Part shown: positions 5,096 to 31,160 of the stretch, piece by piece | Numbering within the stretch: the stretch's first letter is position 1 | How the letters are laid out: every line of letters begins with the position of its first letter | From: Thainema sp. | GTDB taxonomy: Bacteria > Cyanobacteriota > Cyanobacteriia > Phormidesmidales > Phormidesmidaceae | Assembly (NCBI GenBank): GCA_052168235.1 | Contig: JBQLZK010000038.1 | Coordinates: 1 to 46,717, forward strand | DNA: 46,717 nt | Direction of reading: 5' to 3' | Translations under genes and position numbers: made by a program | The notes under the pieces: generated by a model | Databases searched by the model: none | Told to the model about the DNA's origin: nothing | The model's input: only the letters and a program-made list of their open reading frames with translations

Positions 5096-5496
5096 GCACA
5101 TTGACGGTATTAAAAGCTGTGGCAGCACCTCCTCTACTGAATGGACTGTGAAGCAGAATTCAATTCAGGGACGAAGCTGCAACGCGGTACGCTACAGGCT
5201 TTAGTACAGGGCACGTTTTAGTTGATCGACAGACAATCAAAGTCATCTACCACATTGTAGGAAAATTGGTATTTGGCTCTGTTTCTAGTGTCCTACTATC
5301 GTCTGTTAATGCAGCATTTTTAAGAGACTTCTTAACGATGTGTGTGTTCTCTCACATCTTGTACTCAAACTCAGAAGGGTTAAGTTTGCCGCTTCAGGTT
5401 TTGAAGTTACAAGATGAAAGGTATGTGTTCTATGACCTGCTGCACTTCAACATTTAGGTCAATTTTTAGAACATATTGCACAGGACACATCAAGTC

Positions 5497-15503: not shown

Positions 15504-15718
15504 CGAGAGCCGTTATTGCAAATTATTATATTGCCACCGGACACGGTGCTAGCATACTCCCTGCAAGGGTTTCGTGCTTCAGATCACAGACCTGAGATTT
15601 CCTGAGTTTCCTCCCAAAAGCCTCGACAAAGACCATAGTTTTTCCGTAGTGACGGCTACAAAATCGATTGTTAGTTTGGAATCGTCCGATGTTAAAGCCC
15701 CCAACGGAGAAACAATCT

Positions 15719-17701
15719 ATGAACGGTAATCTCGAATTCTTGCTTAATCTCATTATCAGCAATCTGTTCCCTGATGCGCCCCCGATCGATAATTTAGGCG
15801 ACGTTTTCTTTGGTGATGACGGCAACGACCAGTTTGTTGGAGGAGATAAACAAGATATCTTCTTCGGAGGAAAAGGAAACGACAAAATTGAAGGCGGTGA
15901 CGAAACTGACGTAGCCTTCGGTGGTGCAGGTGACGACACTATCGTTGGTCAGCGCGGTGACGACGTTGTTGCAGCCGGTGCAGGTGATGACCGCGTGATC
16001 TGGAACAACGGCGACGGTAGCGACCTAATTGATGGTGGTTCTGGTTACGATGTCTCTGAAGTCAACGGTTCCAACAATAGTGGTGATGAATTCACTCTTC
16101 AGCAAAACGACAAGGGACAAGCCATTTTCGACCGCGTCAACCTCGGCCCCTTCACCCTGACTCAAGACAGCATTGAGCAGATGGAAGTCAATGGTCTAGG
16201 CGGTGACGATTCCTTTACCATCGGTGATTTGTCTAACACAACTATCAAACGCATTCTATTCTCGGGTGGAGACGGTAACGACGTCTTAGATGCACGGGAA
16301 AGTGCAACGCTGATTGAAGCCGATGGTGGTGCGGGTGATGACCTGCTGCAAAGCGGTTCCGCTGCTGACAACCTCAAAGGTGGAGACGGTAACGACACCA
16401 TCGTTGCTCAGCGGGGCGATGATGTGATTGATGCTGGTGACGGTGACGATCGCGTGATTTGGAACAATGGCGACGGTAGCGACCTGATTAATGGTGGCAT
16501 GGGCTTTGATGTCTCTGAAGTCAACGGTTCCAACAACAGCGGTGATGAATTCACCCTCCAGCAAAATGACCAGGGACAAGCCATTTTCGACCGCGTTAAT
16601 CTCGGCCCCTTCACATTAACTCAAGACAACATTGAGCAGATGGAAGTCAACGGCCAAGGTGGCGACGATTCCTTCACTATTGGTGACCTGTCGAAAACCA
16701 CGATTGAAAAGGTCGTATTCTCGGGTGGAGACGGGAACGACGTCTTAGATGCACGAGAAAGTGCAACACCGATTGAAGCCGATGGTGGTGCCGGGGATGA
16801 CCTGCTGCAAAGCGGTTCCGGTGCTGACAACCTCAAAGGTGGAGACGGTAATGACACCATCGTTGCTCAGCGGGGCGATGATGTGATTGATGCGGGTGAC
16901 GGTGACGATCGCGTGATTTGGAACAATGGCGACGGTAGCGACCTGATTAATGGTGGCATGGGCTTTGATGTCTCTGAAGTCAATGGTTCCAACGCTAGCG
17001 GTGATGAGTTCACCCTCCAGCAAAATGACCAAGGACAAGCCATTTTCGATCGCGTCAACCTCGGCCCCTTCACCCTGACTCAAGACAACATTGAGCAGAT
17101 GGAAGTCAACGGCCAAGGTGGTGACGATTCCTTCACCATTGATGACCTGTCGAATACTACGATTCAGAGCATCTTGTTCTCGGGTGGAGATGGCAACGAC
17201 ATCTTGGATGCCGGGAACACCGCAACGCCCATTGTAGCCGATGGTGGCGCGGGCGATGACATCCTGATCGGTGGTTCCGGTGACGATATTCTGATCGGTG
17301 GCGACGGTAGCGACCTGCTGATCGGTGGAGCTGGTAACGACATCCTGATTGGTGGCAACGGGCCGGACAGCTTCGGCTTTGACAGCGGAGCACTGTTCAA
17401 TCCTAGCGATATCGGTACTAACCAGATTCAAAACTTTGATGCGGCTACCGATAGCATCATCCTGGATCAGACGGTCTTCGCCGCCATTACTGGAGATAGC
17501 TTTAGCTCAGACTACTGTGGCATGGTTGCTACCGATGCTGAGGCTGCTTCGAGTGATGCGTTGATTGTCTACAGCATGGGTTCGGGTAACCTGTACTACA
17601 ACCCTAATGGTGCTGAAGATAGCTACGGTAACGGCGGACAGTTTGCCGTGCTTGAAGGTGCGCCAACTCTAACGGCTGATAACTTTGTTGTTCAACCGTA
17701 G
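15719..17701 (+). CDS. Hemolysin-type (RTX) Ca-binding repeat protein
   Basis: Many GGxGxDxL nonapeptides; three near-identical 153-aa (459-bp) modules; no N-terminal signal, consistent with type I secretion; ATG at 15719 with GGAG SD. Confidence 0.9.
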   Translation: MNGNLEFLLNLIISNLFPDAPPIDNLGDVFFGDDGNDQFVGGDKQDIFFGGKGNDKIEGGDETDVAFGGAGDDTIVGQRGDDVVAAGAGDDRVIWNNGDGSDLIDGGSGYDVSEVNGSNNSGDEFTLQQNDKGQAIFDRVNLGPFTLTQDSIEQMEVNGLGGDDSFTIGDLSNTTIKRILFSGGDGNDVLDARESATLIEADGGAGDDLLQSGSAADNLKGGDGNDTIVAQRGDDVIDAGDGDDRVIWNNGDGSDLINGGMGFDVSEVNGSNNSGDEFTLQQNDQGQAIFDRVNLGPFTLTQDNIEQMEVNGQGGDDSFTIGDLSKTTIEKVVFSGGDGNDVLDARESATPIEADGGAGDDLLQSGSGADNLKGGDGNDTIVAQRGDDVIDAGDGDDRVIWNNGDGSDLINGGMGFDVSEVNGSNASGDEFTLQQNDQGQAIFDRVNLGPFTLTQDNIEQMEVNGQGGDDSFTIDDLSNTTIQSILFSGGDGNDILDAGNTATPIVADGGAGDDILIGGSGDDILIGGDGSDLLIGGAGNDILIGGNGPDSFGFDSGALFNPSDIGTNQIQNFDAATDSIILDQTVFAAITGDSFSSDYCGMVATDAEAASSDALIVYSMGSGNLYYNPNGAEDSYGNGGQFAVLEGAPTLTADNFVVQP

Positions 17702-17772
17702 ATATCTAGCGATAAGTGTCTAACGAATCACTGTTTGCATGACTAATTTCCAAACTTCATCATGATGCAAGT

Positions 17773-17803
17773 GTGGACGACAGCAAAGCTGCCGTCCACT
17801 TTT
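17773..17803 (+). terminator. Intrinsic terminator after RTX gene
   Basis: GTGGACGACAGC-AAA-GCTGCCGTCCAC followed by TTTT. Confidence 0.65.
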
Positions 17804-18229
17804 CTATAGCTATAGCGGTTCTAGATAAGAACGAGAGAGGAGAGTGCCTCATCTTGATGCACTCTCCTCTCTCGTTTTCTCACTCTTAACTGGAATTACT
17901 ATGTAGCTATGTTGGTTGGACGTTTGTGTCCTAACAGAACTGACTACATCAAAACCTCGCGAAACGGTGCGTTACGGCTCCGCCTAACACACCCTACAGC
18001 TACAGCATCGTGTAATTTCAGTCATTTACTGACTCACAGATTGCACCTAATCAATGAGAAATCAAGTACACCGAAAGGTTATTTTGTTACCATCATACGG
18101 CAGCGAAATAACCTTTTGGGGTTCTAGTACAAGCTATGAGTTGACTTAATGAAAAATGCGATCGCACTTCTCCTAATAGGATTCGTAGGTGCGATCGCAC
18201 ATGGTCAACACTAAAGCCAGAGCGCCACT

Positions 18230-18868
18230 CTACAAATTGAGCGGTTGAACATTCAGATCCTTCAGCGTGATTGAAAAATGGCGCTGTTCACCTGTTGCAA
18301 TGAAGGAAACAATCACCTCACAGGCCACCGCAACCGTTAGCATCACCAAATTGCGAGCTAGCGGATAATCACAAATATCATCATTCACGTCCGAAGGTAC
18401 TCGGTAATCATCATTCCAAACCACTTCCGCGTAATCAGCCGCAAGTCCCGCGTGGAGACAAGAAATTCCAGCTTGATCGACGTAATTTTTCACTGCTCGA
18501 CGAGAAATGCTGTTATCAAAAACATCAATGATCAACTTGCTCCCATTAAGGAGTTGGGCAGCATTATCTACAGTTAATTTTTTAGTTTCAATTTCGACCT
18601 TTGTGCCAATTGCTCGATACAGATTATTTGCCAAAATTTTGGCCTTAAATGCACCGACATCGGAACGATAATACGGCTGAGTTGAAAGATTCCGTTCTTC
18701 AATGCGATCGCAGTCAATTACCTTGAGTTTGCCGAACCCAGCCCGAGCCAAATTCTCAGCTAGATTGGCACCCAAAGCCCCCACGCCACAAAGAGTTACG
18801 GGATAGTCCTTCAGCTTTGCCATCACCGCATCGGTTCGGTAAAGTTGTTCATGGAGAAAGATAGTCAT
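18230..18868 (-). CDS. ThiF/E1-like adenylyltransferase (ubiquitin-like activating enzyme)
   Basis: GVGALG nucleotide loop, DxDRIEERNLSTQ, GAFKA, IIDVFDN; no CxxC Zn pairs; Cys in DDICDYP; ATGA overlap with upstream gene. Confidence 0.9.
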   Translation of the reverse strand: MTIFLHEQLYRTDAVMAKLKDYPVTLCGVGALGANLAENLARAGFGKLKVIDCDRIEERNLSTQPYYRSDVGAFKAKILANNLYRAIGTKVEIETKKLTVDNAAQLLNGSKLIIDVFDNSISRRAVKNYVDQAGISCLHAGLAADYAEVVWNDDYRVPSDVNDDICDYPLARNLVMLTVAVACEVIVSFIATGEQRHFSITLKDLNVQPLNL

Positions 18869-19692
18869 AGTCCTTCCATCACACCCACTAAGGATTGCAG
18901 GTCAAAATCGCGATCGCGCCCGCTCAAGCAAATACCAGAGCTGACTACCGTTAAGTCATTTTTTGTGATCGCACTGGTATGGCGAGTGCCGTCAGCCATT
19001 GTCCAATCAACTGTCCAGTACTCACCCCGATCCCGGAACTGGTGCAGTTCGCCGCCGCCAAGTTTGAGCGCCTGCCGCAGTCGGCGCTCGTCGCGCTGCG
19101 GTTGGGCAAATCCGGCTGTGCGCTGCGTGACTAACTCATATAGCGATCGCATTTCGGGCGTCATGTCCTTAAACTGCAAGTCTTCAACCGGAGTGAGCTG
19201 CTTGAGATTAGCTTGCAGGGTTTCTGCGATCTCAGGATCAGCCCGCCGATCAACCTCTTCAAACCAGCAGGACTGACCGTTCCAGCGAGCTGTGATTTGC
19301 TCAAATGCTACGCCTTCGGTTATCAGATGCACCAGCACGGGCTTAACAACTTTGAACCGCTGTCGCATATCCGCTTCATTGACTGGATAAGCTAGCCAGG
19401 TTCGATTCTGTAAGCGATAGGCTAACCGCAAGCGAATCGATTGAAACTGCTGCAAGTATGCAGCAATCTGGAATAGATCAGCTTCTTCTACTAGCGTTAC
19501 GGTCTGCGCATCCACAGGCTGAAAAATCCCCCATCCCTCAAACTGCTCGGGTTTCGGAATAAAGGTGTAAACCATGCCTGCAACCCGCGTGCGGACTCGC
19601 CCAGCCTTGACGCAGGGGGCGAGGAATTGAGTTGTTTGCAGGTGTGCTTCAGCACTGGCAATCTGATTCAAAAGCTGGCGGATGTCAGTCAT
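18865..19692 (-). CDS. Hypothetical protein with candidate E2-like C-terminal domain (SSGICLSG)
   Basis: 275 aa; translationally coupled between NADAR and ThiF; E2 assignment is inferred from G-I-C-L followed by an aromatic residue and an amphipathic helix. Confidence 0.8.
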   Translation of the reverse strand: MTDIRQLLNQIASAEAHLQTTQFLAPCVKAGRVRTRVAGMVYTFIPKPEQFEGWGIFQPVDAQTVTLVEEADLFQIAAYLQQFQSIRLRLAYRLQNRTWLAYPVNEADMRQRFKVVKPVLVHLITEGVAFEQITARWNGQSCWFEEVDRRADPEIAETLQANLKQLTPVEDLQFKDMTPEMRSLYELVTQRTAGFAQPQRDERRLRQALKLGGGELHQFRDRGEYWTVDWTMADGTRHTSAITKNDLTVVSSGICLSGRDRDFDLQSLVGVMEGL

Positions 19693-20125
19693 AGCGCAAA
19701 ATTTCGCGAACTTCCATTAGAATTTGTCCCAGTTTGTTCTTGCCGCTGCCGTCTTTGCCACAGCCCCAGTAGTAGTCAATAGGGGAATTTTCGACGATTA
19801 GTTCATTCCCAGTACTGAGTAAAATTTCTTGAATATTGGCATGGGTGCTAAACTTTTGCAGCACAGCTTTATGCATCACTTCATCCTTGACTTGTTCCCA
19901 GTCGGAACGAAGTGGCAATGTGCGATCGCGCCCCATGTTGGCAGCCTGTTTTGGCGTTTTGGTTTGCCGTACCTTTTCTAGATAAGAAGTGCCGACAAAC
20001 TTTTGTGCCTGAAAGTAATGTTCACTGGTTGCCCAATACAGCTCATCGAGCATGAAGCCATGCGCTGAGAAATTGGAGAAGCAACCGTAGGGTTTCTCTC
20101 GTTCAACGTAGAAATAAATGGTCAT
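19685..20125 (-). CDS. NADAR (YbiA-like) family protein
   Basis: FSNF, TSEHYFQAQKF, R.DWE.VK..VM, KF, LL.TG...IVE.SP.D.YWG.G..G.G.N.LG.ILM.VR. Confidence 0.95.
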   Translation of the reverse strand: MTIYFYVEREKPYGCFSNFSAHGFMLDELYWATSEHYFQAQKFVGTSYLEKVRQTKTPKQAANMGRDRTLPLRSDWEQVKDEVMHKAVLQKFSTHANIQEILLSTGNELIVENSPIDYYWGCGKDGSGKNKLGQILMEVREILRYD

Positions 20126-20171
20126 GGTTGCTCCCTATCCTTATCTCTAGCTAAAACGGAATCTTATTAAA

Positions 20172-20255
20172 ACCCGACAATTGATTGTTTGAGAAGCTTG
20201 GCTTAGCCAAGCTTCTCAAACAATCAATTGGGTTCTTATACATGGACTCAAATCA
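20172..20255. repeat. Palindromic MITE-like element between RNA unit U1 and NADAR
   Basis: CAATTGATTGTTTGAGAAGCTTGGCT-T-AGCCAAGCTTCTCAAACAATCAATTG followed by GGGTTCTTATAC, as in the 10.3 kb and 26.2 kb elements. Confidence 0.7.
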
Positions 20256-20257
20256 TA

Positions 20258-20463
20258 CCTGCGTGCAAGTTTTTAGAGCATTGCGCGTTCTCAGTTACTT
20301 GGGGGACTCCGCTGGTGAGTTCTTACACACTCTTTCAAGGATGGCTACTTCTAAGCCCACCTCCCAGGTTCTTCGCACTCCCCGTTTACAAGCGCCCACT
20401 GCATGGCAGCGTCACGTTTCCTCTCGTACTCGTATGTAGGCTCCACAGTTTAGGGCACGCAGG
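20258..20463 (-). ncRNA. Y-RNA-like unit U1 carrying 23S sarcin-ricin loop and H42-H44 GTPase-associated-centre mimics
   Basis: Terminal stem CCUGCGUGC/GCACGCAGG; AGUACGAGAGGA at 20430-20419; CUGG-GAGGUGGGCUUAGAAGUAGCCAUCCUUGAAAGAGUGUGUAAGAACUCA-CCAG at 20367-20312. Confidence 0.85.
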
Positions 20464-20467
20464 ATAT

Positions 20468-20484
20468 ATACTACAAATACTACA
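20468..20484 (-). promoter_or_regulatory. Tandem TGTAGTAT boxes overlapping the predicted -10 of the U1-NADAR-E2like-ThiF unit
   Basis: ATACTACA at 20468-20475 and 20477-20484, 4 nt from the U1 5' end. Confidence 0.65.
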
Positions 20485-20698
20485 AGCAAAATAATCGCTT
20501 TCCGGATGATTGTTCAAGGGGATTTTGGTAAATGTTCAGTCCCAAATAGGACATGCGCCCTAATAAAGATTACTGGAGTCATTCCCGCCCCAAAGAGACT
20601 GTATAGCAGAAATACACGCGTACTAATCCTGTCTAGAGAGAGACGGCAACGCCCAATCAGATGCGTTACAAGGGAAATGGAAAGATGGGAGATTAAAC

Positions 20699-21082
20699 AT
20701 GCCTGTAAAAGAGCTACGTAAGAGCACCATGATGGCACATTTGCTAGATGCGTTGGATGCCGACCAGGATATTCAACATTATGGAAGACTTGTTTTTGCG
20801 ATGGTCGCGCACCATTTTATGGACGAGGAGGAACTAGTAAGCTATCTACAAAAAGGTGGCCATATCAGTGAAGCAGAGGCTCGATCGCTTTATCAGCAGG
20901 TGCAAGCAAAAGACTACAACCCACCCAAACGCGATCGCATTTTGGAGTGGCAGCAGCAGCAAGAGTTTACCATCTGTCCCAATGCCGATGATCCAGATGC
21001 GTGTAATGTTTACAAGGATCTACAGTTTCCAGATCAAGTGTATGAGCACATTTCAGAATATTATGAGCAGAAAGCAACCTAG
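20699..21082 (+). CDS. Hypothetical protein
   Basis: 127 aa with GGGAG SD; HYGRLVF, YNPP and ICP....D.CNVY motifs. Confidence 0.8.
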   Translation: MPVKELRKSTMMAHLLDALDADQDIQHYGRLVFAMVAHHFMDEEELVSYLQKGGHISEAEARSLYQQVQAKDYNPPKRDRILEWQQQQEFTICPNADDPDACNVYKDLQFPDQVYEHISEYYEQKAT

Positions 21083-21110
21083 TAAAAGCAGCTTGTTTGA
21101 TAGTTTGCCG

Positions 21111-21446
21111 TCATGAGAGAGAGGAGAGTTGCTGTAGGGGATACCTGGCTCTAGTTTTGAGGATATTCAAATTATCCACTTGTGCCAGTAAGCGGTCGAG
21201 TGTTGCAGTTTCGCTAGCGGACAACTGATCTTCTGTATTCTGAGCTAGTAGCGCGCCAAGTTGAGTTTGTTCAGCCGAAGCAAGCTGACTGTTGGCTAAT
21301 GCCTGTAATTCCTCCAAGCTTAAGCCTGTCAAAAGCTCCTCGTCAGATGTAGCAGGACTCACAAGACGGTGATGGGTTTCCAAATCAAGCAAAACCCCGA
21401 CTCGCTCTCCTTGTTGATTTGTTATGTACTGCACAGCTTCAGACAT
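21111..21446 (-). CDS. Hypothetical protein with antitoxin-like N-terminus
   Basis: VQYITNQQGERVGVLLDLE resembles N-termini of small antitoxin-like proteins; no adjacent toxin recognised. Confidence 0.65.
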   Translation of the reverse strand: MSEAVQYITNQQGERVGVLLDLETHHRLVSPATSDEELLTGLSLEELQALANSQLASAEQTQLGALLAQNTEDQLSASETATLDRLLAQVDNLNILKTRARYPLQQLSSLS

Positions 21447-21619
21447 GACTCTCTCTATTCAAGTTAGATTAATTCTGACAGGGTTGAGTAAAAATCACTG
21501 TCACTTCATGGACTTTCTTCATGTCGATTATTTACACAGTTTTTGAAGTGTGGTCGAATTTAGCGTCCCGTGCCAAAATAATACAGATGAATAATTTAGT
21601 TATTGTAAGAGGCTAAGGT

Positions 21620-22627
21620 ATGCGATATGCAGTTTGGAATAATAAAGGTGGAGTTGGTAAAACCTTTCTTTCATTTGTATTAAGCACAGAATTTTCTCAT
21701 GCCTTTCCCAGTAGAAATGTAATTTTAGTAGATATGTGTCCACAAGCCAATGTTTCAGAGATTATTCTCGGTGGCAATGGATCGGGTGGTGCTGAAAAGC
21801 TTAATCAGCTTATTGAAGATAGGAAAACAGTGGGAGGGTATTTTGATGAACGTATTAATTCACCACAAAAGCCTACTGAGACGGAAACAAACTATTTACT
21901 AAAAGTACAAGATTACAACTCTAATGTGCCTCCCAATTTGTGGTTGCTTGCTGGTGATCCAAGCCTCGAAATTCAAGCCCAAGTTATTAGCCAGATTAGT
22001 GCACAAACTTTGCCTGTAGAATCATGGAAGAATGTTCATAACTGGTTAAAAGATCTTGTATTAAGCTGTTCAGACAAATTAGGAGAAGATGTAACAGTTT
22101 TTATTGATTGCAATCCTAGTTTTTCAGCATATACGGAGCTTGCGCTTGCAGCAGCAGAACGAATTATTGTACCTTGTACAAGCGATGATTCTTCAGCTAG
22201 AGCTATCAATAATATCGGTGCACTAATATATGGAGTTGGTGTTGATTCCGCTTATAGTACCGTGAATTTTTCTGGTAAGGCAAAAGTATTTGATATGCCT
22301 TTGCCAGAGCTACATTGCGTTGTTTTAAATCGCTCAACTCAATACAATCAAAAAGCAAGTAAGGCTTTTGCTGCTATGTTTAAGGCTATTCAGGAAAGAG
22401 TGAATGATTTGGGGGAAAAAGAAACATTTGTTGCTTCAGGTGAAGAGGTTAGCTTTCAAGAGATCCCAGATAGTCATTCTGTTACGATTGTTTGTTCCCA
22501 TTTAGGAAAGCCTTTGTACAGTATTACACCAGGTAAATACGAGGTTTACGATACAAATCCTCAAGTGAATTCAGAGCCTATAGATCGATATAAAGAAGCA
22601 GTAGCTGCTTTGCTCTCAAAGATTTAA
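21620..22627 (+). CDS. ParA/Soj-family ATPase (orphan, AT-rich)
   Basis: NNKGGVGKT deviant Walker A, VDMCPQAN, FIDCNPS; no parB nearby. Confidence 0.88.
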   Translation: MRYAVWNNKGGVGKTFLSFVLSTEFSHAFPSRNVILVDMCPQANVSEIILGGNGSGGAEKLNQLIEDRKTVGGYFDERINSPQKPTETETNYLLKVQDYNSNVPPNLWLLAGDPSLEIQAQVISQISAQTLPVESWKNVHNWLKDLVLSCSDKLGEDVTVFIDCNPSFSAYTELALAAAERIIVPCTSDDSSARAINNIGALIYGVGVDSAYSTVNFSGKAKVFDMPLPELHCVVLNRSTQYNQKASKAFAAMFKAIQERVNDLGEKETFVASGEEVSFQEIPDSHSVTIVCSHLGKPLYSITPGKYEVYDTNPQVNSEPIDRYKEAVAALLSKI

Positions 22628-22637
22628 GTATATTCTA

Positions 22638-22676
22638 ATCAAGAGTGCGCTAAGGCAAATATTAGGCACTCTTGAT
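22638..22676. terminator. Hairpin between convergent parA-like and Ro-like genes
   Basis: ATCAAGAGTGC...GCACTCTTGAT. Confidence 0.55.
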
Positions 22677-22680
22677 ATAT

Positions 22681-24150
<1,470 letters not shown>

Positions 24151-24245
24151 CTAAGTTTTGAGTTAAAAATCAATTCAAGACTCAAAATTCATCATTCAAA
24201 ACCCTTAATAAGGAGGCAGATGCTGCACGCAGCGGTGATGAGTCA

Positions 24246-24433
24246 CCGCGCAAGTTACAGAAGCTAAGTCAGTACTGAGTTACAAGTGCTGAGCTGCTTG
24301 CTCAGTCCTCAGTCCTCATCCCTCAGTCCTAACCTTTTGCCTGCTATGGGTCTCAGGCTTGCAGCGTACACCCCAGTGTACGCACCAGTTTGTGTTTTGG
24401 TAGGGTATGTAAGCTTCTGCGATCGGGGCGCGG
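24246..24433 (-). ncRNA. Y-RNA-like unit U2 (three-hairpin cargo, unidentified; contains a heptamer-repeat insertion)
   Basis: 5' CCGCGC-CCCGAUCGCAGAAGCUUACAUAC ... AGCUUCUGUAACUU-GCGCGG 3'; same scaffold as U1, U3, U4 and U5. Confidence 0.75.
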
Positions 24434-24457
24434 CAACAACTGCCAGTACTAAAAGAT

Positions 24458-24604
24458 CACTTCGTGCAAGTCGAAAAAGCTGTTGTTTCATACACAGGAT
24501 TCGTAGCTTGCTTCCGCGAAGCGGTACCTATGACTGATCGATCCAAAATCGATTGCTCTACCACTGAGCCAGTATGTAAGCTTTTGGGGTTAGGGCACGA
24601 AGTG
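24458..24604 (-). ncRNA. Y-RNA-like unit U3 with embedded tRNA-like cloverleaf (anticodon UUG), T-loop interrupted
   Basis: Stem CACUUCGUGC/GCACGAAGUG; D arm UGGCUCAGUGGUAGAGC; anticodon arm AUCGA-UUUUGGA-UCGAU; T arm AUAGGU[22-nt insert]CGAAUCCUGU. Confidence 0.8.
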
Positions 24605-24608
24605 GGAA

Positions 24609-25340
24609 TTAATTAATTTGATTCAGTTTTTCTTGAATTATTTTGATTTCGCGCTTGTTGCACTGTCGCTTATGGGCAGCATAGAGTTGATTACTAGAAT
24701 GTTTAGATTCTGGTGTAACCGTAGCTCGATGTAGTACATCAAACACAATTTCAGTTGTTGGTACATCTTGATAGGTAATCAAGTACCAAATATCATCAAT
24801 TTTGCGATACTGATGATATGCATCTAGATTCAAACAATCCAACTGCCGATTTGGCTTGGAAGTTGAATCTACAAAAGATGTTGGATCAATATCCTTTACA
24901 TCACAGAGAATACCTGTTTCAGAATGAACATAGAGCTGTAATTGATAACTCCGTGTTAGCCGATATCCTCCATCTGATTTCCGATAAGGAATACCATCAA
25001 TTAGTTCAACATGTCGCTCAACGTAATGCCACACATGGCTCAGGATATGCTGTCCCGATAATGTACTGGTGTCTAGCTGCTGACATAGTTTGCTGTAGAC
25101 ATCGTTCCACGGTTGTCCAACCTGCGATCGCAAATATCGACGTAGGGGAGCAAGATGATCCGAGAAATACTTCGACTTATTTCTAGGTTTAATCAAATAA
25201 GGTCGGAGTAAACCATCTTCGCTTGCTTCTTCGGTTAGTTTATGTAATTGTTTCTTAAAGCCTTTCACTTTTCTCAGGCTTATTCGCATCCCATATCGAG
25301 GACGCTCAATCACAATTTCACTTAAACGATGTTCGCTCAT
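24609..25340 (-). CDS. Basic hypothetical protein (243 aa) within the RNA array
   Basis: MSEHRLSEIVIERPR...DHLAPLRRYLRSQVGQPWNDVYS...LYVH..TGIL; start at 25340 because the longer ORF runs into RNA U4. Confidence 0.8.
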   Translation of the reverse strand: MSEHRLSEIVIERPRYGMRISLRKVKGFKKQLHKLTEEASEDGLLRPYLIKPRNKSKYFSDHLAPLRRYLRSQVGQPWNDVYSKLCQQLDTSTLSGQHILSHVWHYVERHVELIDGIPYRKSDGGYRLTRSYQLQLYVHSETGILCDVKDIDPTSFVDSTSKPNRQLDCLNLDAYHQYRKIDDIWYLITYQDVPTTEIVFDVLHRATVTPESKHSSNQLYAAHKRQCNKREIKIIQEKLNQIN

Positions 25341-25427
25341 GGTTTGAAGTTTCCAACCTACAGACTGGTTTCCCAGTAGTGTGCAAGCTTTGCAAGTCAG
25401 AGTACGGAAATGATTAGTGATAAACGA

Positions 25428-25609
25428 TTTCATGCAAGTCAGCAAAAGCGATTGACAGCTTACGGTCGCTCTTACCAACAAAGTTGGCAGCGGGCACGTA
25501 TGCTAGATCTGCGAGAGACCTAGAATCACACTTCGCTGGTTCGATCGCTCGAACTTCGCTACCTTAGGACCGTTATTCGTGTGTATGCTTCTGCGGTCGG
25601 GGCACGAAA
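25428..25609 (-). ncRNA. Y-RNA-like unit U4 carrying a circularly permuted 23S domain IV (H67-H71) mimic
   Basis: Stem UUUCGUGC/GCAUGAAA; AUAACGGUCCUAAGGUAGCGAA at 25576-25555; UGCCCGCUGCC...GGUAAGAGCGACCGUAA at 25496-25460. Confidence 0.85.
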
Positions 25610-25618
25610 GAAATCTTC

Positions 25619-25834
<216 letters not shown>

Positions 25835-25845
25835 TCATCGAATAG

Positions 25846-25916
25846 GTGAGGCGTGAGGAGCGAGGCGTGAGGCGAGTTTCAGTAACTCAGCATTCAGCAC
25901 TTTCTACTCAGCACTA
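25846..25916. repeat. Heptamer-repeat (STRR-like) tract
   Basis: GTGAGGC-type x4 followed by ACTCAGC-type x4. Confidence 0.65.
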
Positions 25917-26008
25917 AATTTCTGGGTTGCTTCATCTGGGGATGAATTTGGATATAGGAGTGGTGCCCCTAAATCTCAGTTCATCCCTAAAATCAGCAAT
26001 GCCAAGTT

Positions 26009-26085
26009 TGGGGTGACTGACGAGAGTCGAACTCGCTAACACTGGTGTCACAAACCAGCCCCTCCACCGCTTCGGGTTCAGTCAC
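26009..26085 (-). tRNA. trnH: tRNA-His (GUG), CCA encoded, no genomic G-1
   Basis: GTGACTG/CAGTCAC acceptor, C73, CCA; CTGGT-TTGTGAC-ACCAG anticodon arm; GCGAG-TTCGACT-CTCGT T arm. Confidence 0.9.
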
Positions 26086-26087
26086 AG

Positions 26088-26161
26088 TGGATTCTGGTCG
26101 GATTTGAACCGACATCTTTCTGCTTGCAAGGCAGATGCTTTCCCAATTAAGCTACAGACCC
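26088..26161 (-). tRNA. trnA: tRNA-Ala (UGC) with 1-nt bulge in acceptor stem
   Basis: GGGTCTG...TAGCTTAATTGGGAAAGC; TCTGC-CTTGCAA-GCAGA; GTCGG-TTCAAAT-CCGAC; 3' CAGA(A)TCCA. Confidence 0.85.
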
Positions 26162-26171
26162 AAGATGAGGG

Positions 26172-26277
26172 TAATATCAATTCCGTGTATAAGAACCCTG
26201 TTTATTTTTTGTGAAATGCTTACTAAGCAAGCATTTCACAAAAAATAAACAATGGGTTTTTAACCGGATTTTATATA
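26172..26277. repeat. Palindromic MITE-like element (family copy 2, inverted relative to the 10314 copy)
   Basis: GTTTATTTTTTGTGAAATGCTT...AAGCATTTCACAAAAAATAAAC. Confidence 0.75.
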
Positions 26278-26280
26278 AAT

Positions 26281-26400
26281 GTCGTGCAAGTTGAAAAAGC
26301 TGTTGATTCATACACAGGACTTGAACCTGCAATCGACTGTTCTAGAGACAGTTGCCCTACCATTAGGCGAGTATGTAAGCTTTTTCGATCAGGGCACGAC
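26281..26400 (-). ncRNA. Y-RNA-like unit U5 with embedded tRNA-like cloverleaf (anticodon CUA)
   Basis: Stem GUCGUGC/GCACGAC and AAAAAGCU/AGCUUUUU; D arm GCCU-AAUGGU-AGGGC; ACUGU-CUCUAGA-ACAGU; GCAGG-UUCAAGU-CCUGU; acceptor CAUAC/GUAUG continues into the scaffold with no CCA. Confidence 0.85.
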
Positions 26401-26402
26401 AA

Positions 26403-26473
26403 CGCACAGACGAGGATTTGAACCTCGAACTACGGTTTTGGAGACCGTTGTGTTGCCGTTACACTATCCGTGC
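26403..26473 (-). tRNA. trnW: tRNA-Trp (CCA)
   Basis: GCACGGA/TCTGTGC acceptor, G73; ACGGT-CTCCAAA-ACCGT; CGAGG-TTCAAAT-CCTCG. Confidence 0.93.
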
Positions 26474-26556
26474 AAGAGAGGATTAAGTGCTGAGGGCTGA
26501 ACGCTGAGGGCCAAGTAAGAATTGTGAAATTGGCTTAGCTCCTTTGCGCTGTGTTG

Positions 26557-26603
26557 ATACTACAATAATACGTATACTACAAAACGTCAAGGGATATACT
26601 ACA
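26557..26603 (-). promoter_or_regulatory. Sigma70-type promoter of the tRNA/ncRNA/Ubl/Ro operon overlapped by three TGTAGTAT boxes
   Basis: -35 TTGACG (26590-26585), 17-nt spacer, -10 TATTGT (26567-26562); ATACTACA at 26557, 26574 and 26596. Confidence 0.75.
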
Positions 26604-26879
26604 ACTTTTTTGGAAGACGACCAGATCCTTATGAGGCAAGGATTTGAAGGTAGCATCTTGAGCTGATTATGATCTACTACAAATGTTTTTGTACAAATTT
26701 CTGCTGTGAGTAAAAAGTGCGATCGCACTATGCATCACACCTCGTAGAGGCAAGCAGCCATTTACCCAGTGCAGCATTGCCCCCATTTTTGCCCGCTTTG
26801 CAATCTCTATCTGCCATTTGATACGGTTAACTCAACCAAACCAAAGTAGTATGGTCGCAAGCAAGTACGGTGGTGAACA

Positions 26880-27341
26880 ATGGCAGACGAACTCAGGACA
26901 TTCAAGATTGATTCTGAGCAGTGGCAGGCGTTCGAAGAGAAGGCAACTGCTAACGGCACTACTGCATCAGAGCTGCTAGAGAGCTATGTACAGCAGTACA
27001 TAAGCGATGATCCAGATAGTAAGTCAGATAGGGTTGATCAGCGCATCAATGCCATTCTGGAACAGCGTTTGGAAGGCTTTGGCGCTCGCTTGTCACAGGT
27101 CGAACAACGCCTAAATGATGATGCAGCTCATCCAAGACAACACATCGGTGAAGGTCTGGGCAATATAGACAAGCATTTGGATCAGCATTTAGGTGATATA
27201 GATGAACACCTGGTCGCCTATCTCGATAATCCAAACGAAACAGAAAAGAAATCTCACCTGCCAAGACAGGCTGTAGAGATTCTAAAAGATCGCCAAGGCG
27301 AGCAGCGACCATCTCAACGCCAACGAGATAGTAACCGTTGA
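26880..27341 (+). CDS. Ribbon-helix-helix (CopG/Arc-like) protein with coiled-coil C-terminus
   Basis: LRTFKID strand, SEQWQAFEEKATANG helix, TASELLESYVQQYI helix. Confidence 0.7.
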   Translation: MADELRTFKIDSEQWQAFEEKATANGTTASELLESYVQQYISDDPDSKSDRVDQRINAILEQRLEGFGARLSQVEQRLNDDAAHPRQHIGEGLGNIDKHLDQHLGDIDEHLVAYLDNPNETEKKSHLPRQAVEILKDRQGEQRPSQRQRDSNR

Positions 27342-27523
27342 TCTCAATCAGCTTGAGTGACTGATATTTGTGCGATCGCGCTTCTCTACATGAAATTTCT
27401 CGATAGAGCTGCGGGTGCGATCGCACCCTATCAAACCTTGTAGGGGCAAATGGCCATTTGCCCAATGCAGCACCCACAACACAGAATAATCTAGCTAAAT
27501 TTCCAACCTTTCCGGAATCGCCG

Positions 27524-27553
27524 TTGACGCTATGTAGTACAAGAATGTAGTAT
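27524..27553 (+). promoter_or_regulatory. Promoter of the DIP1984-ncRNA-rtcB unit overlapped by two TGTAGTA(T/C) boxes
   Basis: -35 TTGACG 27524-27529, 18-nt spacer, -10 TAGTAT 27548-27553; TGTAGTAC at 27533 and TGTAGTAT at 27546. Confidence 0.75.
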
Positions 27554-27583
27554 AAACTCATCCGTAGAGAAGCGGTAAAGAAA

Positions 27584-28042
27584 ATGAAGCTAGCAGAAGC
27601 CCTGATTGTGCGGGCAGATTGTCAAAAGCGGATTGCTCAACTTCAGCAGCGCCTCATGCGGAGCGCCAAAGTGCAAGAAGGCGAGCAAGCGCCCGAAAAC
27701 CCACAGGAACTGCTGGCTGAGCTAGATGCAGCAATTGTTGAACTGACTCAACTCATCCAGCAAATTAATAAAACCAACGCTATTACCTCCTTGCAGGATC
27801 AGACTCTGTCTGAAGCCCTCGCCCAGCGGGACACCCTGCAAACGAAGCGCAATATTTACAGTCGCTTAATTGAAGCAGCAGCGATTCAGCCAACTCGCTA
27901 TAGTCAATCTGAAGTCCGCTTTGTCAGCACCGTCAACATCGCCGAACTTCAGCGCCAAGTGGATACACTGGCTCGCGACTATCGCGTTCTGGATTCTGCG
28001 ATTCAGGAGATCAACTGGCAAGTTGATTTACTCGATAATTAA
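27584..28042 (+). CDS. DIP1984-family coiled-coil protein
   Basis: MKLAEAL..RAD.QKRI.QL..R......VQEG..P.E.P..L...IN.TN...RYS.SE....S......LD..IQ..NW..DL. Confidence 0.88.
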   Translation: MKLAEALIVRADCQKRIAQLQQRLMRSAKVQEGEQAPENPQELLAELDAAIVELTQLIQQINKTNAITSLQDQTLSEALAQRDTLQTKRNIYSRLIEAAAIQPTRYSQSEVRFVSTVNIAELQRQVDTLARDYRVLDSAIQEINWQVDLLDN

Positions 28043-28574
28043 CGGAAACTGTATCGCCTCATACTAACCACATCCGGCTCTCCTCGCTCTATGGGCTACT
28101 GTTTATACATAAGTCTCCTAGACTTCGTTTCGACATTGAGATCCCCCCTAGCCCCCCTTAAAAAGGGGGGAATTGGCTCAAAGTTCCCCCTTTTTAAGGG
28201 GGATTTAGGGGGATCAGTCCGGGGTTTATAAAGACTATTCAGAAGTATATAAGCAGTAGCCCTATGGGCGAGGGGCTGGGGGTGAGAGCAACAGCAGGTA
28301 GCTCATTCATCACGAAGCGAACACAACCCGCCAACGGGGTTCAGTTGGAACTTACCAATCTAGAAAATTGGTCTTTGGTTGCACCGGGGCAGTGCGGTGG
28401 GTTCGATTCCCCTTACAACTGATGCCCAGCATTGTTACAGGCGTACTGTGCATTGTTATCGCGTACTACCACGTGTTGATCGAGATGAATGAGTGAGGGT
28501 GGGTTCGGGGTTTACGCTGTTGATCCGGTGAGCATCAACTCAAAATATTAGGTGGGGGCAGGTTGAGCCGTTAA
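28039..28574 (+). ncRNA. Candidate large structured RNA between the DIP1984 gene and rtcB with a tRNA-like subdomain
   Basis: Long-range pairs TTAACGG/CCGTTAA, CTCATTCATC/GATGAATGAG and TCAGTTG/CAACTGA; T-loop GGGTTCGATTCCC; anticodon-like ACCAAT-CTAGAAA-ATTGGT. Confidence 0.6.
28078..28288. repeat. Nested cyanobacterial palindromic repeats inserted in the DIP1984-rtcB spacer
   Basis: Inner ATCCCCCCTAGCCCCCCTTAAAAAGGGGGGA...TCCCCCTTTTTAAGGGGGATTTAGGGGGAT inside GGGCTACTG/CAGTAGCCC and CCTCGC/GCGAGG arms. Confidence 0.75.
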
Positions 28575-28655
28575 ATAATTGGTTTAGATCACAATTGATC
28601 AACGAAACCTGCTTCTACAGAAGGCACATCTTTCAATGGTTCAAGGAGAATCAAC

Positions 28656-29837
28656 ATGTCCTATCAACAACTCAAAATCTCTACACCAGCGCCTGTGTTC
28701 TCCTGGGCCAATCACGACCTGGGACACGCCGAAATCAGCATGGCGAAAAACGTTGCGTCCCTTCCCTTCGTGTTTAAGCATGTGGCGCTGATGCCCGATG
28801 TGCATCTGGGTAAAGGTGCGCTAGTTGGCTCCGTCATTGCTACCAAAGACGCCATTATTCCGGCAGCAGTCGGCGTAGACATCGGCTGCGGCATGTGCGC
28901 CATTCAAACGCCGTTTCAGGCCGACCAGCTTGACGGCAAGCTGAAGAAAATCCGCTCGGATATTGAAGCGGCGATTCCGACGGGCTTTGACCAGAATAAG
29001 GAGTCCGATAAGCAAGTCGATAACTGGCAGGGCTGGCAGCAGTTCAAAGAGCTGCATTCCGGCGTGCAGCACCTAGCGGGCAAAGCCCAAAAGCAAATGG
29101 GTTCGCTGGGTGGCGGCAACCACTTCATTGAGGTGTGTCTGGATACCAACGATCAGGTGTGGCTGATGCTGCATTCTGGTTCGCGCAATATCGGCAACAT
29201 GCTGGCTCAGAACCACATCAAGACGGCCAAAGAAGTGGCGAAGCTGGCCGAAATGAAGCTACCTGATCCCGATCTGTCCTACTTCGTAGCCGGAACGCCG
29301 GAGTTTGCCGCTTACTGGCGCGATTTGCAGTGGGCGCAGGACTATGCTCGGTTCAACCGTGAGGTGATGATGACTCGCTTCAAGCGAATTGTCGAAAAAC
29401 ACCTGGCAGGCGGCAAGCCAATCAAGCCACTGCTGTCGGTAAACTGCCACCACAACTACGCCGAGCAGGAAACTCACTTTGGCGAAGCGGTGTATGTCAC
29501 CCGCAAGGGAGCCGTGCGCGCTCAAACCAATGACTACGGGATTATTCCCGGTTCAATGGGCACCAAGTCCTACATTGTCAAGGGCAAGGGCCATGCCGAT
29601 AGCTACTGCTCATGCAGCCACGGTGCTGGCCGCACGATGTCCCGTAACCAAGCTAAGAAGCGCTTTTCACTGGATGATCTACTCCAGCAAACCGAAGGCG
29701 TGGAATGTCGTAAGGACAAGGGTGTCTTGGATGAAATTCCAGGTGCCTACAAGCCAATCGATGAGGTGATGGCTAGCCAGTCTGACCTGGTTGAGATCGT
29801 GGCAACCCTAAAGCAGGTCGTCTGCGTGAAAGGCTAG
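28656..29837 (+). CDS. rtcB: RNA-splicing/repair ligase RtcB
   Basis: MPDVH.G, VGVDIGCG, GSLGGGNHF.E, LHSGSR, NCHHNY, RKGA, IPGSMG, HGAGR, DEIP.AYK, KG. Confidence 0.98.
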   Translation: MSYQQLKISTPAPVFSWANHDLGHAEISMAKNVASLPFVFKHVALMPDVHLGKGALVGSVIATKDAIIPAAVGVDIGCGMCAIQTPFQADQLDGKLKKIRSDIEAAIPTGFDQNKESDKQVDNWQGWQQFKELHSGVQHLAGKAQKQMGSLGGGNHFIEVCLDTNDQVWLMLHSGSRNIGNMLAQNHIKTAKEVAKLAEMKLPDPDLSYFVAGTPEFAAYWRDLQWAQDYARFNREVMMTRFKRIVEKHLAGGKPIKPLLSVNCHHNYAEQETHFGEAVYVTRKGAVRAQTNDYGIIPGSMGTKSYIVKGKGHADSYCSCSHGAGRTMSRNQAKKRFSLDDLLQQTEGVECRKDKGVLDEIPGAYKPIDEVMASQSDLVEIVATLKQVVCVKG

Positions 29838-30482
29838 AACAGCTAGCTCTACTAAAGCTCGGATCTGCGATCGCACATCTCACTCCCCATATCCTGTACC
29901 GAAATAACCCGCATGGGTTCTAGCTTTGCTAGGTGCAAGATGTGAAACTTGCCACTGTGAGTGATTTGGGGAACATGTGCGATCGCGGATTATTGCTTTC
30001 CAAATCTCAATTGTTTTTATTTCGCAACATTCTCACTGTCCATTCTGGAATTCTACAGTCAAAAGCCGTATCCCTATCCAGGGAAATGCACTCTACATTT
30101 AAAAAGGATTAGCCCCCATGTTGATTCTCTACATTCGTTTACCTAGACCTCCGAAAAATTTATTTGCTCCGCCTCTGAACGATCAATCAGATAACCGTGA
30201 GGTTAAACCGCTTGATCGCCCGACCGAGGACGAAACGGATCATGAAATTGCTGAACATCCACGCAAGATCCACGTTGATAATTACAAGCGCAACGCTCAA
30301 TCGAACTATTCACTTGAGCGACGGATGTTCTGGTAACACGGTGCTAAAACTTAGTCAGTCATGCGATCGCACTTTCCTAAATAACTTCAGAAAAGTGCGA
30401 TCGCAGCAACAACGTTTAAAGTAAAGAAAGATTTTACTCATAAAAATCAAGCCCGTAATGATGCTGCACCCAATCGGCAAGC

Positions 30483-31160
30483 ATGAAGATTTTGTTGGTT
30501 GAAGATGATTCCCGAATTTCTAAGGCGATCGCAGAAGCGCTAACCGATCAGCGGCATATTGTGGAAACAGCAGACGATGGTGAATTGGGTTTGGCATTTG
30601 CTGAAACCAACACCTTTGACTTAATTGTGCTGGATTTGATGTTGCCGAAGCTTGATGGTATTACGCTCTGTCGTCAGATCCGGGAAGCCGGAGTAACAAC
30701 ACCAATTTTGATGCTGACGGCTCGCGACACCAGCAACGATAAAGTATTAGGGCTAGATGTGGGTGCGGATGACTATGTGGTGAAACCGTTTGACCTACCC
30801 GAACTGTTAGCCCGCATTCGTGCCCTCCTCCGGCGGAGCAGAGTTGCCGCCACCACCATTCTAGAATGGGAACAGCTTAGTCTCGATCCAGATCAGTGTC
30901 AGGTACAGTACTGCGATCGCAGCTTAAACCTAACGCCCAAAGAATATGCGCTCCTAGAGCTATTTCTGCGCAACGGCAGTCGAGTGCTGAGCCGCAGCGC
31001 TATTTTAGAGCGGGTTTGGGCTTTCGAAGATATGCCTGCGGAAGAAACCGTCAAAGTGCATTTACGCAGCCTTCGCCAAAAGCTGAAAGCAGCGGGTGCA
31101 CCCCCTAATTTTATTGAAAACGTCTATGGCTTGGGATATCGGCTCAACCCCAATCTCTAA
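30483..31160 (+). CDS. OmpR-family response regulator
   Basis: REC (LLVEDD, LDLMLP, KPF) plus winged helix (LTPKE, V.G.GY). Confidence 0.96.
   Translation: MKILLVEDDSRISKAIAEALTDQRHIVETADDGELGLAFAETNTFDLIVLDLMLPKLDGITLCRQIREAGVTTPILMLTARDTSNDKVLGLDVGADDYVVKPFDLPELLARIRALLRRSRVAATTILEWEQLSLDPDQCQVQYCDRSLNLTPKEYALLELFLRNGSRVLSRSAILERVWAFEDMPAEETVKVHLRSLRQKLKAAGAPPNFIENVYGLGYRLNPNL

Follow-up and report, generated by a model that had tools for sequence, protein, structure and literature searches.

Y RNAs act as tethers that give the ring protein Ro60 its partners, and to our knowledge tRNA is the only structure that they have so far been shown to mimic. The closest described relatives of the locus studied here are the bacterial Ro60 (Rsr) systems with YrlA and YrlB RNAs, such as rsr-yrlBA-rtcBA in Salmonella and the Rsr/Y RNA/PNPase system of Deinococcus. 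We analyzed a stretch of 46,717 nucleotides from the cyanobacterium Thainema sp. (GenBank assembly GCA_052168235.1, contig JBQLZK010000038.1, forward strand; hereafter the window), in which an island at 18230-29837 holds a cassette that shares with these systems a protein with a Ro60-fold ring and a vWA domain, adjacent small RNAs whose two ends pair into a stem with a conserved, partly similar motif on its 5' strand, modular apical domains that mimic tRNA, and a thematic tie to RtcB and tRNA damage. It differs from them in several ways. The Ro-like family lacks Pfam TROVE matches (0/42 relatives) and the RNAs fall into none of the Y RNA families in Rfam. A single locus holds up to five or more RNAs, whose modules include rRNA centers, namely the sarcin-ricin loop with the GTPase-associated center (SRL+GAC) and helices H69-71, as well as entire tRNA cloverleafs attached by way of the acceptor stem. 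The cassette also carries genes for Ubl66 (a candidate ubiquitin-like [Ubl] protein of 66 amino acids [aa]), the E1-superfamily protein ThiF, and the proteins p275 and p243, often with a paralog of ribosomal protein bL12, and its predicted control is by a TrcR box rather than by RtcR/sigma-54.

Two further groups of systems invite comparison. Ubiquitin-like conjugation is known in bacteria from the Cap2 E2-E1 fusions of CBASS (cyclic oligonucleotide-based antiphage signaling systems) and from Bil/Bub-type operons. With these systems the cassette shares an E1 domain (matching PADLOC E1-E2 models and Cap2 in the PDB), an overlapping upstream gene in the E2 position and a small protein with a C-terminal Gly. 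Unlike in those systems, p275 matches no E2 model, the conserved set includes no JAB or other deconjugating peptidase, and the predicted partner is a Ro-RNA particle instead of a cyclase or a phage-tail target. RNAs that copy binding sites of the translation machinery to bind protein partners are likewise familiar, as in tmRNA and the ribosomal protein (r-protein) leaders, for example the L10 leader. The mimic RNAs described here differ from these in being near-exact copies (47/56 positions of the large-subunit [LSU] rRNA consensus) and in joining SRL and GAC in one RNA; unlike the r-protein leaders, they sit on a common scaffold and do not lead r-protein genes.

A further relative is the TrcR regulon of Anabaena sp. 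PCC 7120 with its trn array (PMC10272220; PMC8421152). The island has in common with it an identical TGTAGTAT operator/-10 box, adjacent tRNAs on the same strand and an rtcB gene under the same box. Few YrlA RNAs have been found in cyanobacteria (Chen et al. 2014). We rate the cassette as a variant of the Ro/Y RNA systems. The initial annotation of this DNA had known of no Y RNA carrying rRNA-domain mimics, and the literature covered describes neither such an RNA nor a Ro/Ubl/E1 cassette; the survey of Ro/TROVE RNA-repair operons by Burroughs and Aravind (2016, NAR 44:8525), which may mention related operons, lay outside its scope.

A cyanobacterial cassette around a divergent Ro60 homolog

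The comparative set consisted of 80 Ro-like loci with 10-kb flanks, all labelled cyanobacterial; many end early at contig ends, and 47 are full length. Gene presence in the 80 loci was scored by tBLASTn within +/-10 kb of the Ro-like gene, and gene content of the 47 by clustering of open reading frames (ORFs). Beside the Ro-like gene (80/80), Ubl66 was found in 74 loci, p275 in 62, ThiF in 60 and p243 in 54; the corresponding counts in the full-length loci are 47 for the Ro-like gene, 45 for Ubl66, 42 for ThiF, 41 for p275 and 39 for p243. The elements occupy a single strand and run Ubl66, H69-71 RNA, p243, tRNA-like and short RNAs, Ro-like, SRL+GAC RNA, p275 and ThiF. Ubl66, p243, the Ro-like protein, p275 and ThiF, interleaved with modular small RNAs, thus form a conserved cyanobacterial cassette.

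The island had initially been described as containing rtcB, a vWA protein, NADAR, ThiF, a 66-aa protein ending in Gly, a protein with a GICL motif (p275), tRNAs and five RNAs sharing one terminal helix, an inventory that the analysis bears out. The proposed co-occurrence of these genes held for Ubl66, p275 and ThiF and failed for RtcB, which occurs in 1/80 loci, as does DUF6847; NADAR occurs in 6/80. RtcB and NADAR, first taken for parts of the system, are ruled out as core components by these counts.

The Ro-like protein of the window (477 aa; 22681-24114, minus strand) gives, taken alone, only subthreshold vWA matches in Pfam, and the best hit of a single-sequence PDB search is a phage TROVE protein with an E value of 0.018. 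A profile built from 42 diverse relatives (30-65% identity) retrieves human Ro60 (6e-16), a Thermus-phage Ro60/TROVE protein (9e-15), Xenopus Ro (4e-12) and Deinococcus Rsr (4e-8). The AlphaFold2 (AF2) model has a predicted local distance difference test score (pLDDT) of 90.2, and its top 12 Foldseek matches are all Ro60/TROVE proteins aligned over the full length (template modeling [TM] score 0.62-0.71, E 1e-10 to 1e-12). The metal ion-dependent adhesion site (MIDAS; DxSxS, T, D) is intact, with D300, S302, S304, T362 and D386 invariant, and 9/42 relatives match Pfam vWA_Ro60. As judged from profile comparison and the predicted structure, the protein is a true but divergent Ro60 homolog, in keeping with its first description as TROVE-like with a vWA domain. 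The family is large: 3096 of the 8000 candidates scored belong to it at E<=1e-3, it counts 1020 representative clusters at 50% identity, and it occupies 478 genome places in a set of one genome per species (185,579 species).

Scaffolded RNAs and their predicted TrcR control

Folding closes five minus-strand RNAs of the island (within 20258-26402) with one two-helix terminal scaffold. Helix 1 spans 8-9 bp and ends in GYGC/GCRC; an asymmetric internal loop follows, with 7 nt on the 5' side (CCYRAYC) and ~5 nt on the 3' side (AACUU); helix 2 has 6-8 bp and leads into a UACAYAC motif and then the variable module. The 5'-strand consensus is GYGCCCYRA. In work on YrlA, an RNA that mimics tRNA, the Ro-contact motifs on the 5' strand of Y RNAs are given as GGUCCGA and GNCGAAN0-1G (PMC4201824); GYGCCCYRA sits at the same place of the stem and is partly alike in sequence, without being one of these published motifs. 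The common closing stem is Y-RNA-like.

A strict pattern-plus-pairing scan of the 80 loci with their 10-kb flanks returned 179 scaffolded RNAs; every one lies on the strand of the Ro-like gene and 0 on the opposite one, and looser patterns gave 176 versus 2. One scaffolded copy always stands directly upstream of the Ro-like gene, and clustering of the cargos indicated that tRNA-like, rRNA-like and plain hairpin modules are all mounted on this one scaffold. The covariance model R1 was convincing only for the RNA with the shortest cargo (26280-26402; 49.5 bits, E 4e-10), because its match window is too short for long cargos. Conservation, strand bias and the compensatory changes described below agree with the expectation, set out beforehand, that the RNAs would be conserved and covarying at related loci.

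The SRL+GAC RNA (20258-20463, minus strand) is composed of an SRL core, AGUACGAGAGGA, within a closed stem, a variable hairpin and a domain like H42-H44. The core is identical to E. coli 23S rRNA at 12/12 nt. The GAC part (20312-20367) matches the Rfam bacterial LSU rRNA model at positions 1093-1148 with 53.1 bits (gathering score 50; E 4e-13) and agrees with the bacterial consensus at the 47/56 positions mentioned above. BLAST of the cargos alone, the method used for the census of mimic RNAs, detected 56 copies spread over 54/80 loci; each of them is encoded on the cassette strand and sits in the interval from the Ro-like gene to p275. In an alignment of 54 of these RNAs, 96.6% of the cells of the scaffold, the SRL stem and H42-H44 are paired, compared with 34-51% when the structure is slid along the alignment. 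Twelve pairs changed on both sides, a number reached in 0/500 shuffles, and the cells with two-sided changes number 80 versus 20 +/- 4.5 in shuffles; within the H43 mimic, for example, GC is replaced by AU in 18 sequences. Because the 54 aligned copies maintain this chimeric arrangement with compensatory changes, we rule out that the SRL+GAC RNAs are relics of rRNA pseudogenes in decay.

The H69-71 RNA (25424-25610, minus strand) contains a segment identical by BLAST at 25/26 nt to E. coli 23S rRNA at ~1916-1941, which begins with the 3' strand of H69 and reaches the H70/H71 junction; the numbering is approximate, being calibrated on what we take to be the E. coli position of the SRL. Rfam gave no match for this RNA taken alone. 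The whole cargo scores 64 against E. coli 23S rRNA (null 42 +/- 4), and outside ~1916-1941 it aligns weakly to neighboring rRNA, with 2.8% of shuffles scoring as high. Of the rRNA sites first listed as mimicked, the SRL and the GAC were recovered, and H67-H71 is solid only for this segment. The RNA occurs in 35/80 loci, always between Ubl66 and p243; its class has 98.7% of cells paired and six compensatory pairs under a structure that was derived from the same alignment.

Two other scaffolded RNAs of the window, at 26280-26402 (CUA anticodon loop) and 24459-24603 (UUG anticodon loop and an extra arm), both on the minus strand, each enclose a whole tRNA-like cloverleaf that attaches via its acceptor stem. 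In the first, a tRNA was called by ARAGORN as well as by Rfam (50.6 bits), and ARAGORN calls tRNA-Gln at 24485-24578 in the second, which the relaxed scaffold scan also found. The tRNA mimicry proposed at the outset thus holds, and it extends to whole cloverleaf-like bodies instead of two anticodon arms. Across the loci, full tRNA-like cargos (n=47) stand beside a permuted class (n=42) with the order T arm, closed acceptor stem, D arm. This order is the YrlA architecture (PMC4201824), from which the full cloverleafs of the two window RNAs differ.

The fifth scaffolded RNA (24243-24436, minus strand), immediately upstream of the Ro-like gene, belongs to a class of 14; most loci have a 76-nt hairpin version at this place, and short hairpin RNAs of 70-88 nt amount to ~50 copies, almost every one adjoining the Ro-like gene on its upstream side. 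Against E. coli 23S rRNA, the only reference used (no 16S, 5S, RNase P RNA or tmRNA), the fifth cargo gave nothing above shuffles. Its long variable arm differs in length between loci, with RNAs of 147 to 194 nt, and in most Nostoc loci a small hairpin replaces the whole module. In the window, this arm (24270-24340, minus strand) is made of short GGACUGAG-type repeats.

The TGTAGTAT box occurs six times in the window, in three clusters, with 0.74 copies expected and 0/100 shuffles reaching six. Two boxes with a TAGTAT -10 lie directly upstream of the SRL+GAC RNA (20468-20484, minus strand) and three upstream of the operon of tRNAs, Y-like RNAs and Ubl66 (26557-26603, minus strand), whose first gene past the boxes encodes tRNA-Trp(CCA) (26403-26473, minus strand; ARAGORN and Rfam). 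A further box contains the -10 of a predicted sigma-70-like promoter (27524-27553, plus strand) directed divergently toward DUF6847 and RtcB. In the 80 loci, 185 boxes are on the cassette strand and 46 on the opposite strand (~22 expected per strand); they concentrate 2.5-3 kb upstream of the Ro-like gene, and 40/56 SRL+GAC RNAs have one <=120 nt upstream.

In Anabaena, TGTAGTAT, overlapping a TAGTAT -10, is the operator of the ribbon-helix-helix repressor TrcR on the trn tRNA operon, as determined by electrophoretic mobility shift assay and footprinting (Wang et al. 2023, PMC10272220). TrcR is reported there to repress rtcB, rsgA and rimK, rtcB being a proven target in Anabaena, and translation stress lifts the repression. 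Since the box is this published operator, the island would belong to a known translation-stress regulon. A box shared by three promoters had been noticed in the initial annotation, which missed its identity. In the window, an RsgA ribosome-assembly GTPase gene, whose Anabaena counterpart is a TrcR target, lies at 5476-6576 (plus strand), 12 kb from the island, with no exact TGTAGTAT box near it.

Free tRNAs accompany the cassette in 53/81 sequences (at least one each), with 307/310 on the cassette strand. In seven of the 81, 25-32 tRNA genes stand directly upstream on the same strand (L004:4680-7666, L011:4195-8139, L007:4519-8218 and four more loci). These arrays look like the TrcR-controlled long trn array of Anabaena (Santamaria-Gomez et al. 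2021, PMC8421152). In PMC10272220 and PMC8421152, Ro60, vWA and Y RNA are not mentioned, nor are ThiF, 23S, ubiquitin, von Willebrand and tRNA-like in PMC8421152, and the supplements of the TrcR paper have no entry named vWA or ThiF. Because these terms are absent, the cassette and its mimic RNAs appear to be an undescribed part of the TrcR regulon or a neighbor to it.

Could the shared stems be mere processing or regulatory structures of a tRNA operon that stands beside a Ro-like gene by chance, with the rRNA-like pieces as relics? The leaders of r-protein operons do mimic rRNA, the RNAs share their operon with genuine tRNAs, at times in the long arrays just described, and generic sigma-70 promoter and terminator scans did no better than shuffles. 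Such an origin would leave several features aside: a single scaffold around tRNA-like, rRNA-like and plain hairpin modules, the constant copy directly upstream of the Ro-like gene, the TrcR-box promoter that the SRL+GAC RNA has to itself in 40/56 cases, its conserved chimeric makeup with compensatory changes, and the YrlA arm order in 42 RNAs. We consider this explanation very improbable.

Possible roles of the Ubl/E1 pair and the RNA-protein particle

The protein-modifying part of the cassette is more conjectural. Ubl66 (25619-25819, minus strand; ends ...AVYG-stop) is known from 60 distinct variants, all of 66 aa, and has no Pfam match and no PDB relative; its size and C terminus make it a candidate ubiquitin-like or carrier protein, for which a beta-grasp fold is unproven. 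ThiF (212 aa; 18230-18868, minus strand) is a ThiF-like adenylating enzyme of the E1 superfamily (Pfam ThiF, E 1.4e-25). PADLOC E1-E2 models match its E1 part (1.5e-15), its PDB profile matches comprise ThiF-type proteins, TcdA, MccB, Uba6 and Cap2, and the closest named families are NCBIfam ThiF/MoeB, all with scores far below the cut-offs. Its start overlaps the stop of p275.

The p275 protein (275 aa; 18865-19692, minus strand) has 1392 homologs, all named hypothetical, and finds no match in Pfam, NCBIfam, PADLOC, a PDB profile search or the protein atlas. Its invariant C255 lies in SSGICLSG, with an invariant H238 upstream, an arrangement that we take to resemble the active-site motif of UBC-type E2 enzymes; p275 is accordingly a candidate E2-like protein, as yet unproven. 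For p243 (24609-25340, minus strand), homolog lengths place the true start at the ATG at 25340, giving 243 aa instead of the 290 aa of the mechanical ORF (24609-25481), inside which the 3' half of the H69-71 RNA falls. Its 493 homologs of 240-243 aa are nearly all named hypothetical (two records are named 'Transposase'), none of them has a Pfam domain, and the protein matches no NCBIfam family and nothing in the PDB.

The same pair could serve sulfur transfer or RNA modification, as do the sulfur-carrier pairs ThiS/ThiF and TtuB/TtuC, to which Ubl66 and ThiF may be likened. A thiocarboxylate on Ubl66 would then thiolate tRNAs or the mimic RNAs, or ThiF would act on RNA directly in the manner of TcdA, and no protein would be tagged. 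The small stand-alone ThiF with its nearest relatives in ThiF/MoeB, the tRNA-modifying E1-like TcdA among its PDB matches, the carrier-sized Ubl66 with an exposed C-terminal Gly, the wealth of RNAs in the operon and the lack of a recognizable E2 or deubiquitinase in searches of p275 and the conserved set would all suit this role. It sits poorly with a Ubl66 C terminus of YG, not GG, in 59/60 variants, with ThiF/MoeB scores that stay far under the cut-offs, with the invariant Cys of p275 in its E2-like motif and with a conserved gene set that includes no rhodanese, cysteine desulfurase or PP-loop thiolase. On balance we find it improbable.

We favor, at a probability of about 40% for the whole chain, a role of the RNAs as baits or decoys in a response to damage of the translation apparatus. 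Translation stress would relieve TrcR repression, and the operon would be transcribed together with the neighboring tRNAs. The RNAs would be cut from the transcript and bound by the Ro-like protein at their common stem through the GYGCCCYRA motif of the 5' strand. Each module would mimic a ribosomal or tRNA site and dock the usual ligands of that site, which might be translational GTPases, stalk proteins and modification enzymes, or else nucleases, ADP-ribosyltransferases and antibiotics that attack it. Docking would thereby tether the ligand to the Ro-like ring, whose vWA domain bears the MIDAS. ThiF may adenylate the C-terminal Gly of Ubl66, which would be passed, possibly via Cys255 of p275, to the captured ligand or to the ribonucleoprotein (RNP), thereby marking or regulating the target. 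RNA-repair enzymes (RtcB, NADAR, Tpt1, a CCA-type nucleotidyltransferase and EndoV) would be swappable add-ons.

The accessory genes give this last step some context. Some cassettes contain or adjoin genes for a Tpt1/KptA RNA 2'-phosphotransferase, a poly(A)-polymerase-head/CCA-type nucleotidyltransferase, Endonuclease V, PIN, an HNH endonuclease or GNAT, each type in 3-4/47 full-length loci; the Endonuclease V gene occupies the position of p243 in 4/47. Examples lie at L007:11512-12240, L007:13439-14014, L004:8579-9418 and L009:14674-15534 on the plus strand and at L052:11813-12217 and L064:16845-17414 on the minus strand. The NADAR-domain gene of the window (19685-20125, minus strand; Pfam NADAR, E 1.7e-43), a variable accessory, and its RtcB gene (28656-29837, plus strand; Pfam RtcB, E 1.9e-130) fit this pattern of interchangeable RNA-repair add-ons.

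A paralog of bL12 (L7/L12) of 126-130 aa, absent from the window, is encoded between p243 and the Ro-like gene in 26/80 loci (L064:9383-9763, L058:9079-9471 and L051:9365-9757, plus strand, and 23 others), with matches above the cut-offs to both Pfam Ribosomal_L12 (~1e-24) and Ribosomal_L12_N. On the ribosome, the rRNA of the factor-binding site has two elements, the SRL and H42-44; bL12 sits on H42-44 via L10, and translational GTPases dock at the site that it builds with the SRL. The paralog thus fits an RNA mimic of this site, and because the cassette pairs a stalk paralog with the SRL+GAC RNA, which is present in 20/26 of these loci, that RNA seems meant for recognition as a factor-docking site. 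A more specific version of the bait-or-decoy role would be an immune sensor of the decoy-guard kind, in which the SRL+GAC RNA, often with the bL12 paralog, is assembled on a Ro60 platform into a miniature factor-binding site, with tRNA and H69-71 baits beside it. Toxins, phage factors or antibiotics aimed at these sites would be caught on the baits, and the Ubl system would tag the attacker or signal its presence. We regard such a sensor as unlikely; if it were true, it would give bacteria a parallel to decoy-based effector-triggered immunity and would recall the pairing of Ro60 with Ro52 in eukaryotes.

The bL12 paralog also suggests assembly of a stalk-like particle, as would suit a tether for quality control of the kind formed by Deinococcus Rsr, Y RNA and PNPase. 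Here the modules, instead of serving as decoys, would recruit the ring to housekeeping enzymes or ribosomal proteins, such as stalk proteins, GTPases and enzymes that process or modify tRNA and rRNA; damaged rRNA and tRNA would be degraded or repaired during translation stress, and Ubl and E1 would only regulate the RNP. All core proteins are under strong purifying selection, and the stress regulon also holds rtcB, rsgA and rimK, both in line with such a role. Yet no nuclease such as PNPase is found among the cassette genes of the full-length loci, a dedicated Ubl/E1 pair would be left without a reason, and conflict systems are called to mind by the changing set of RNA-repair accessories, by copies on plasmids and by genomes with two copies. 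We hold a quality-control tether to be rather unlikely, if conceivable.

Several genomes have two copies of the Ro-like cassette (L006/L007, L009/L013, L011/L031 and L012/L067). One genome has one copy on a 288-kb plasmid and the other on the chromosome; the plasmid search returned only two records. Between cyanobacterial orders the core proteins keep 80-96% identity, which, together with the paired copies, hints at horizontal spread.

Other observations weigh against the bait-or-decoy role. The very high protein conservation looks more like that of a housekeeping or recently spread module than of an arms-race gene. RtcB and NADAR are absent from most loci. The anticodon loops of the tRNA-like RNAs across the loci (GAA, CUA, UGA, UAA and others) presumably have no obvious match to known anticodon-nuclease targets. 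No Y RNA family of Rfam was matched at E<=1 in window positions 17500-30500 or at the gathering score in six loci, and Pfam TROVE is matched at E<=0.01 neither by the window protein nor by any of the 42 relatives, so that the family would be missed by TROVE-based surveys. As for conjugation, Ubl66 ends in YG and not GG, the ORF clusters conserved across the 47 full-length loci include no JAB or other deconjugating peptidase, and the E2 assignment of p275 draws on a short motif only. The AF2 model of p275, built from a shallow alignment, has a pLDDT of 40.7, and Foldseek found for this model nothing significant and weak RWD-type matches with probability <0.3.

One scaffold nonetheless displays, in near-exact copy, those sites of the ribosome that are attacked most and touched most by factors. 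Should the predicted expression and binding of the RNAs hold, Ro/Y RNPs would extend their repertoire from tRNA to ribosome mimicry, the TrcR translation-stress response would gain a concrete effector, and bacterial ubiquitin-like chemistry would be tied to RNA-protein particles. Since the modules name the likely ligands, what Ro/Y RNPs bind would become directly testable.

Neighboring features in the window

In the window, a block of three genes stands between the Ro-like gene and the SRL+GAC RNA: a 127-aa ORF (20699-21082, plus strand), a 111-aa ORF (21111-21446, minus strand) and a ParA-like ATPase gene (21620-22627, plus strand). Because tBLASTn found counterparts of these genes in 0/80 loci, the block (20699-22627) looks like an insertion specific to the window.

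Two long near-perfect hairpins of ~20 bp accompany the RNAs, one just 3' of the SRL+GAC RNA (20178-20230, minus strand) and one after the first tRNA-like RNA (26200-26250). The terminator scan called neither, and Rfam gave chance microRNA-like matches only for both; the former, which fails the T-tail criterion, is a possible terminator or processing site.

Downstream of the first scaffolded tRNA-like RNA follow tRNA-Ala(UGC) (26089-26161, minus strand; ARAGORN and Rfam) and, 3 nt after it, a tRNA-like gene (26012-26085, minus strand) that Rfam recognizes with 47.6 bits and ARAGORN does not call. Its anticodon loop would read GUG, and it may be a defective or unusual tRNA. On the plus strand, the first gene of the RtcB unit (27584-28042) encodes a protein of the DUF6847/DIP1984 family, as assigned by Pfam and NCBIfam. 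Just beyond the other end of the island, a 677-aa protein with eight matches to RTX calcium-binding repeats is encoded at 15668-17701 (plus strand).

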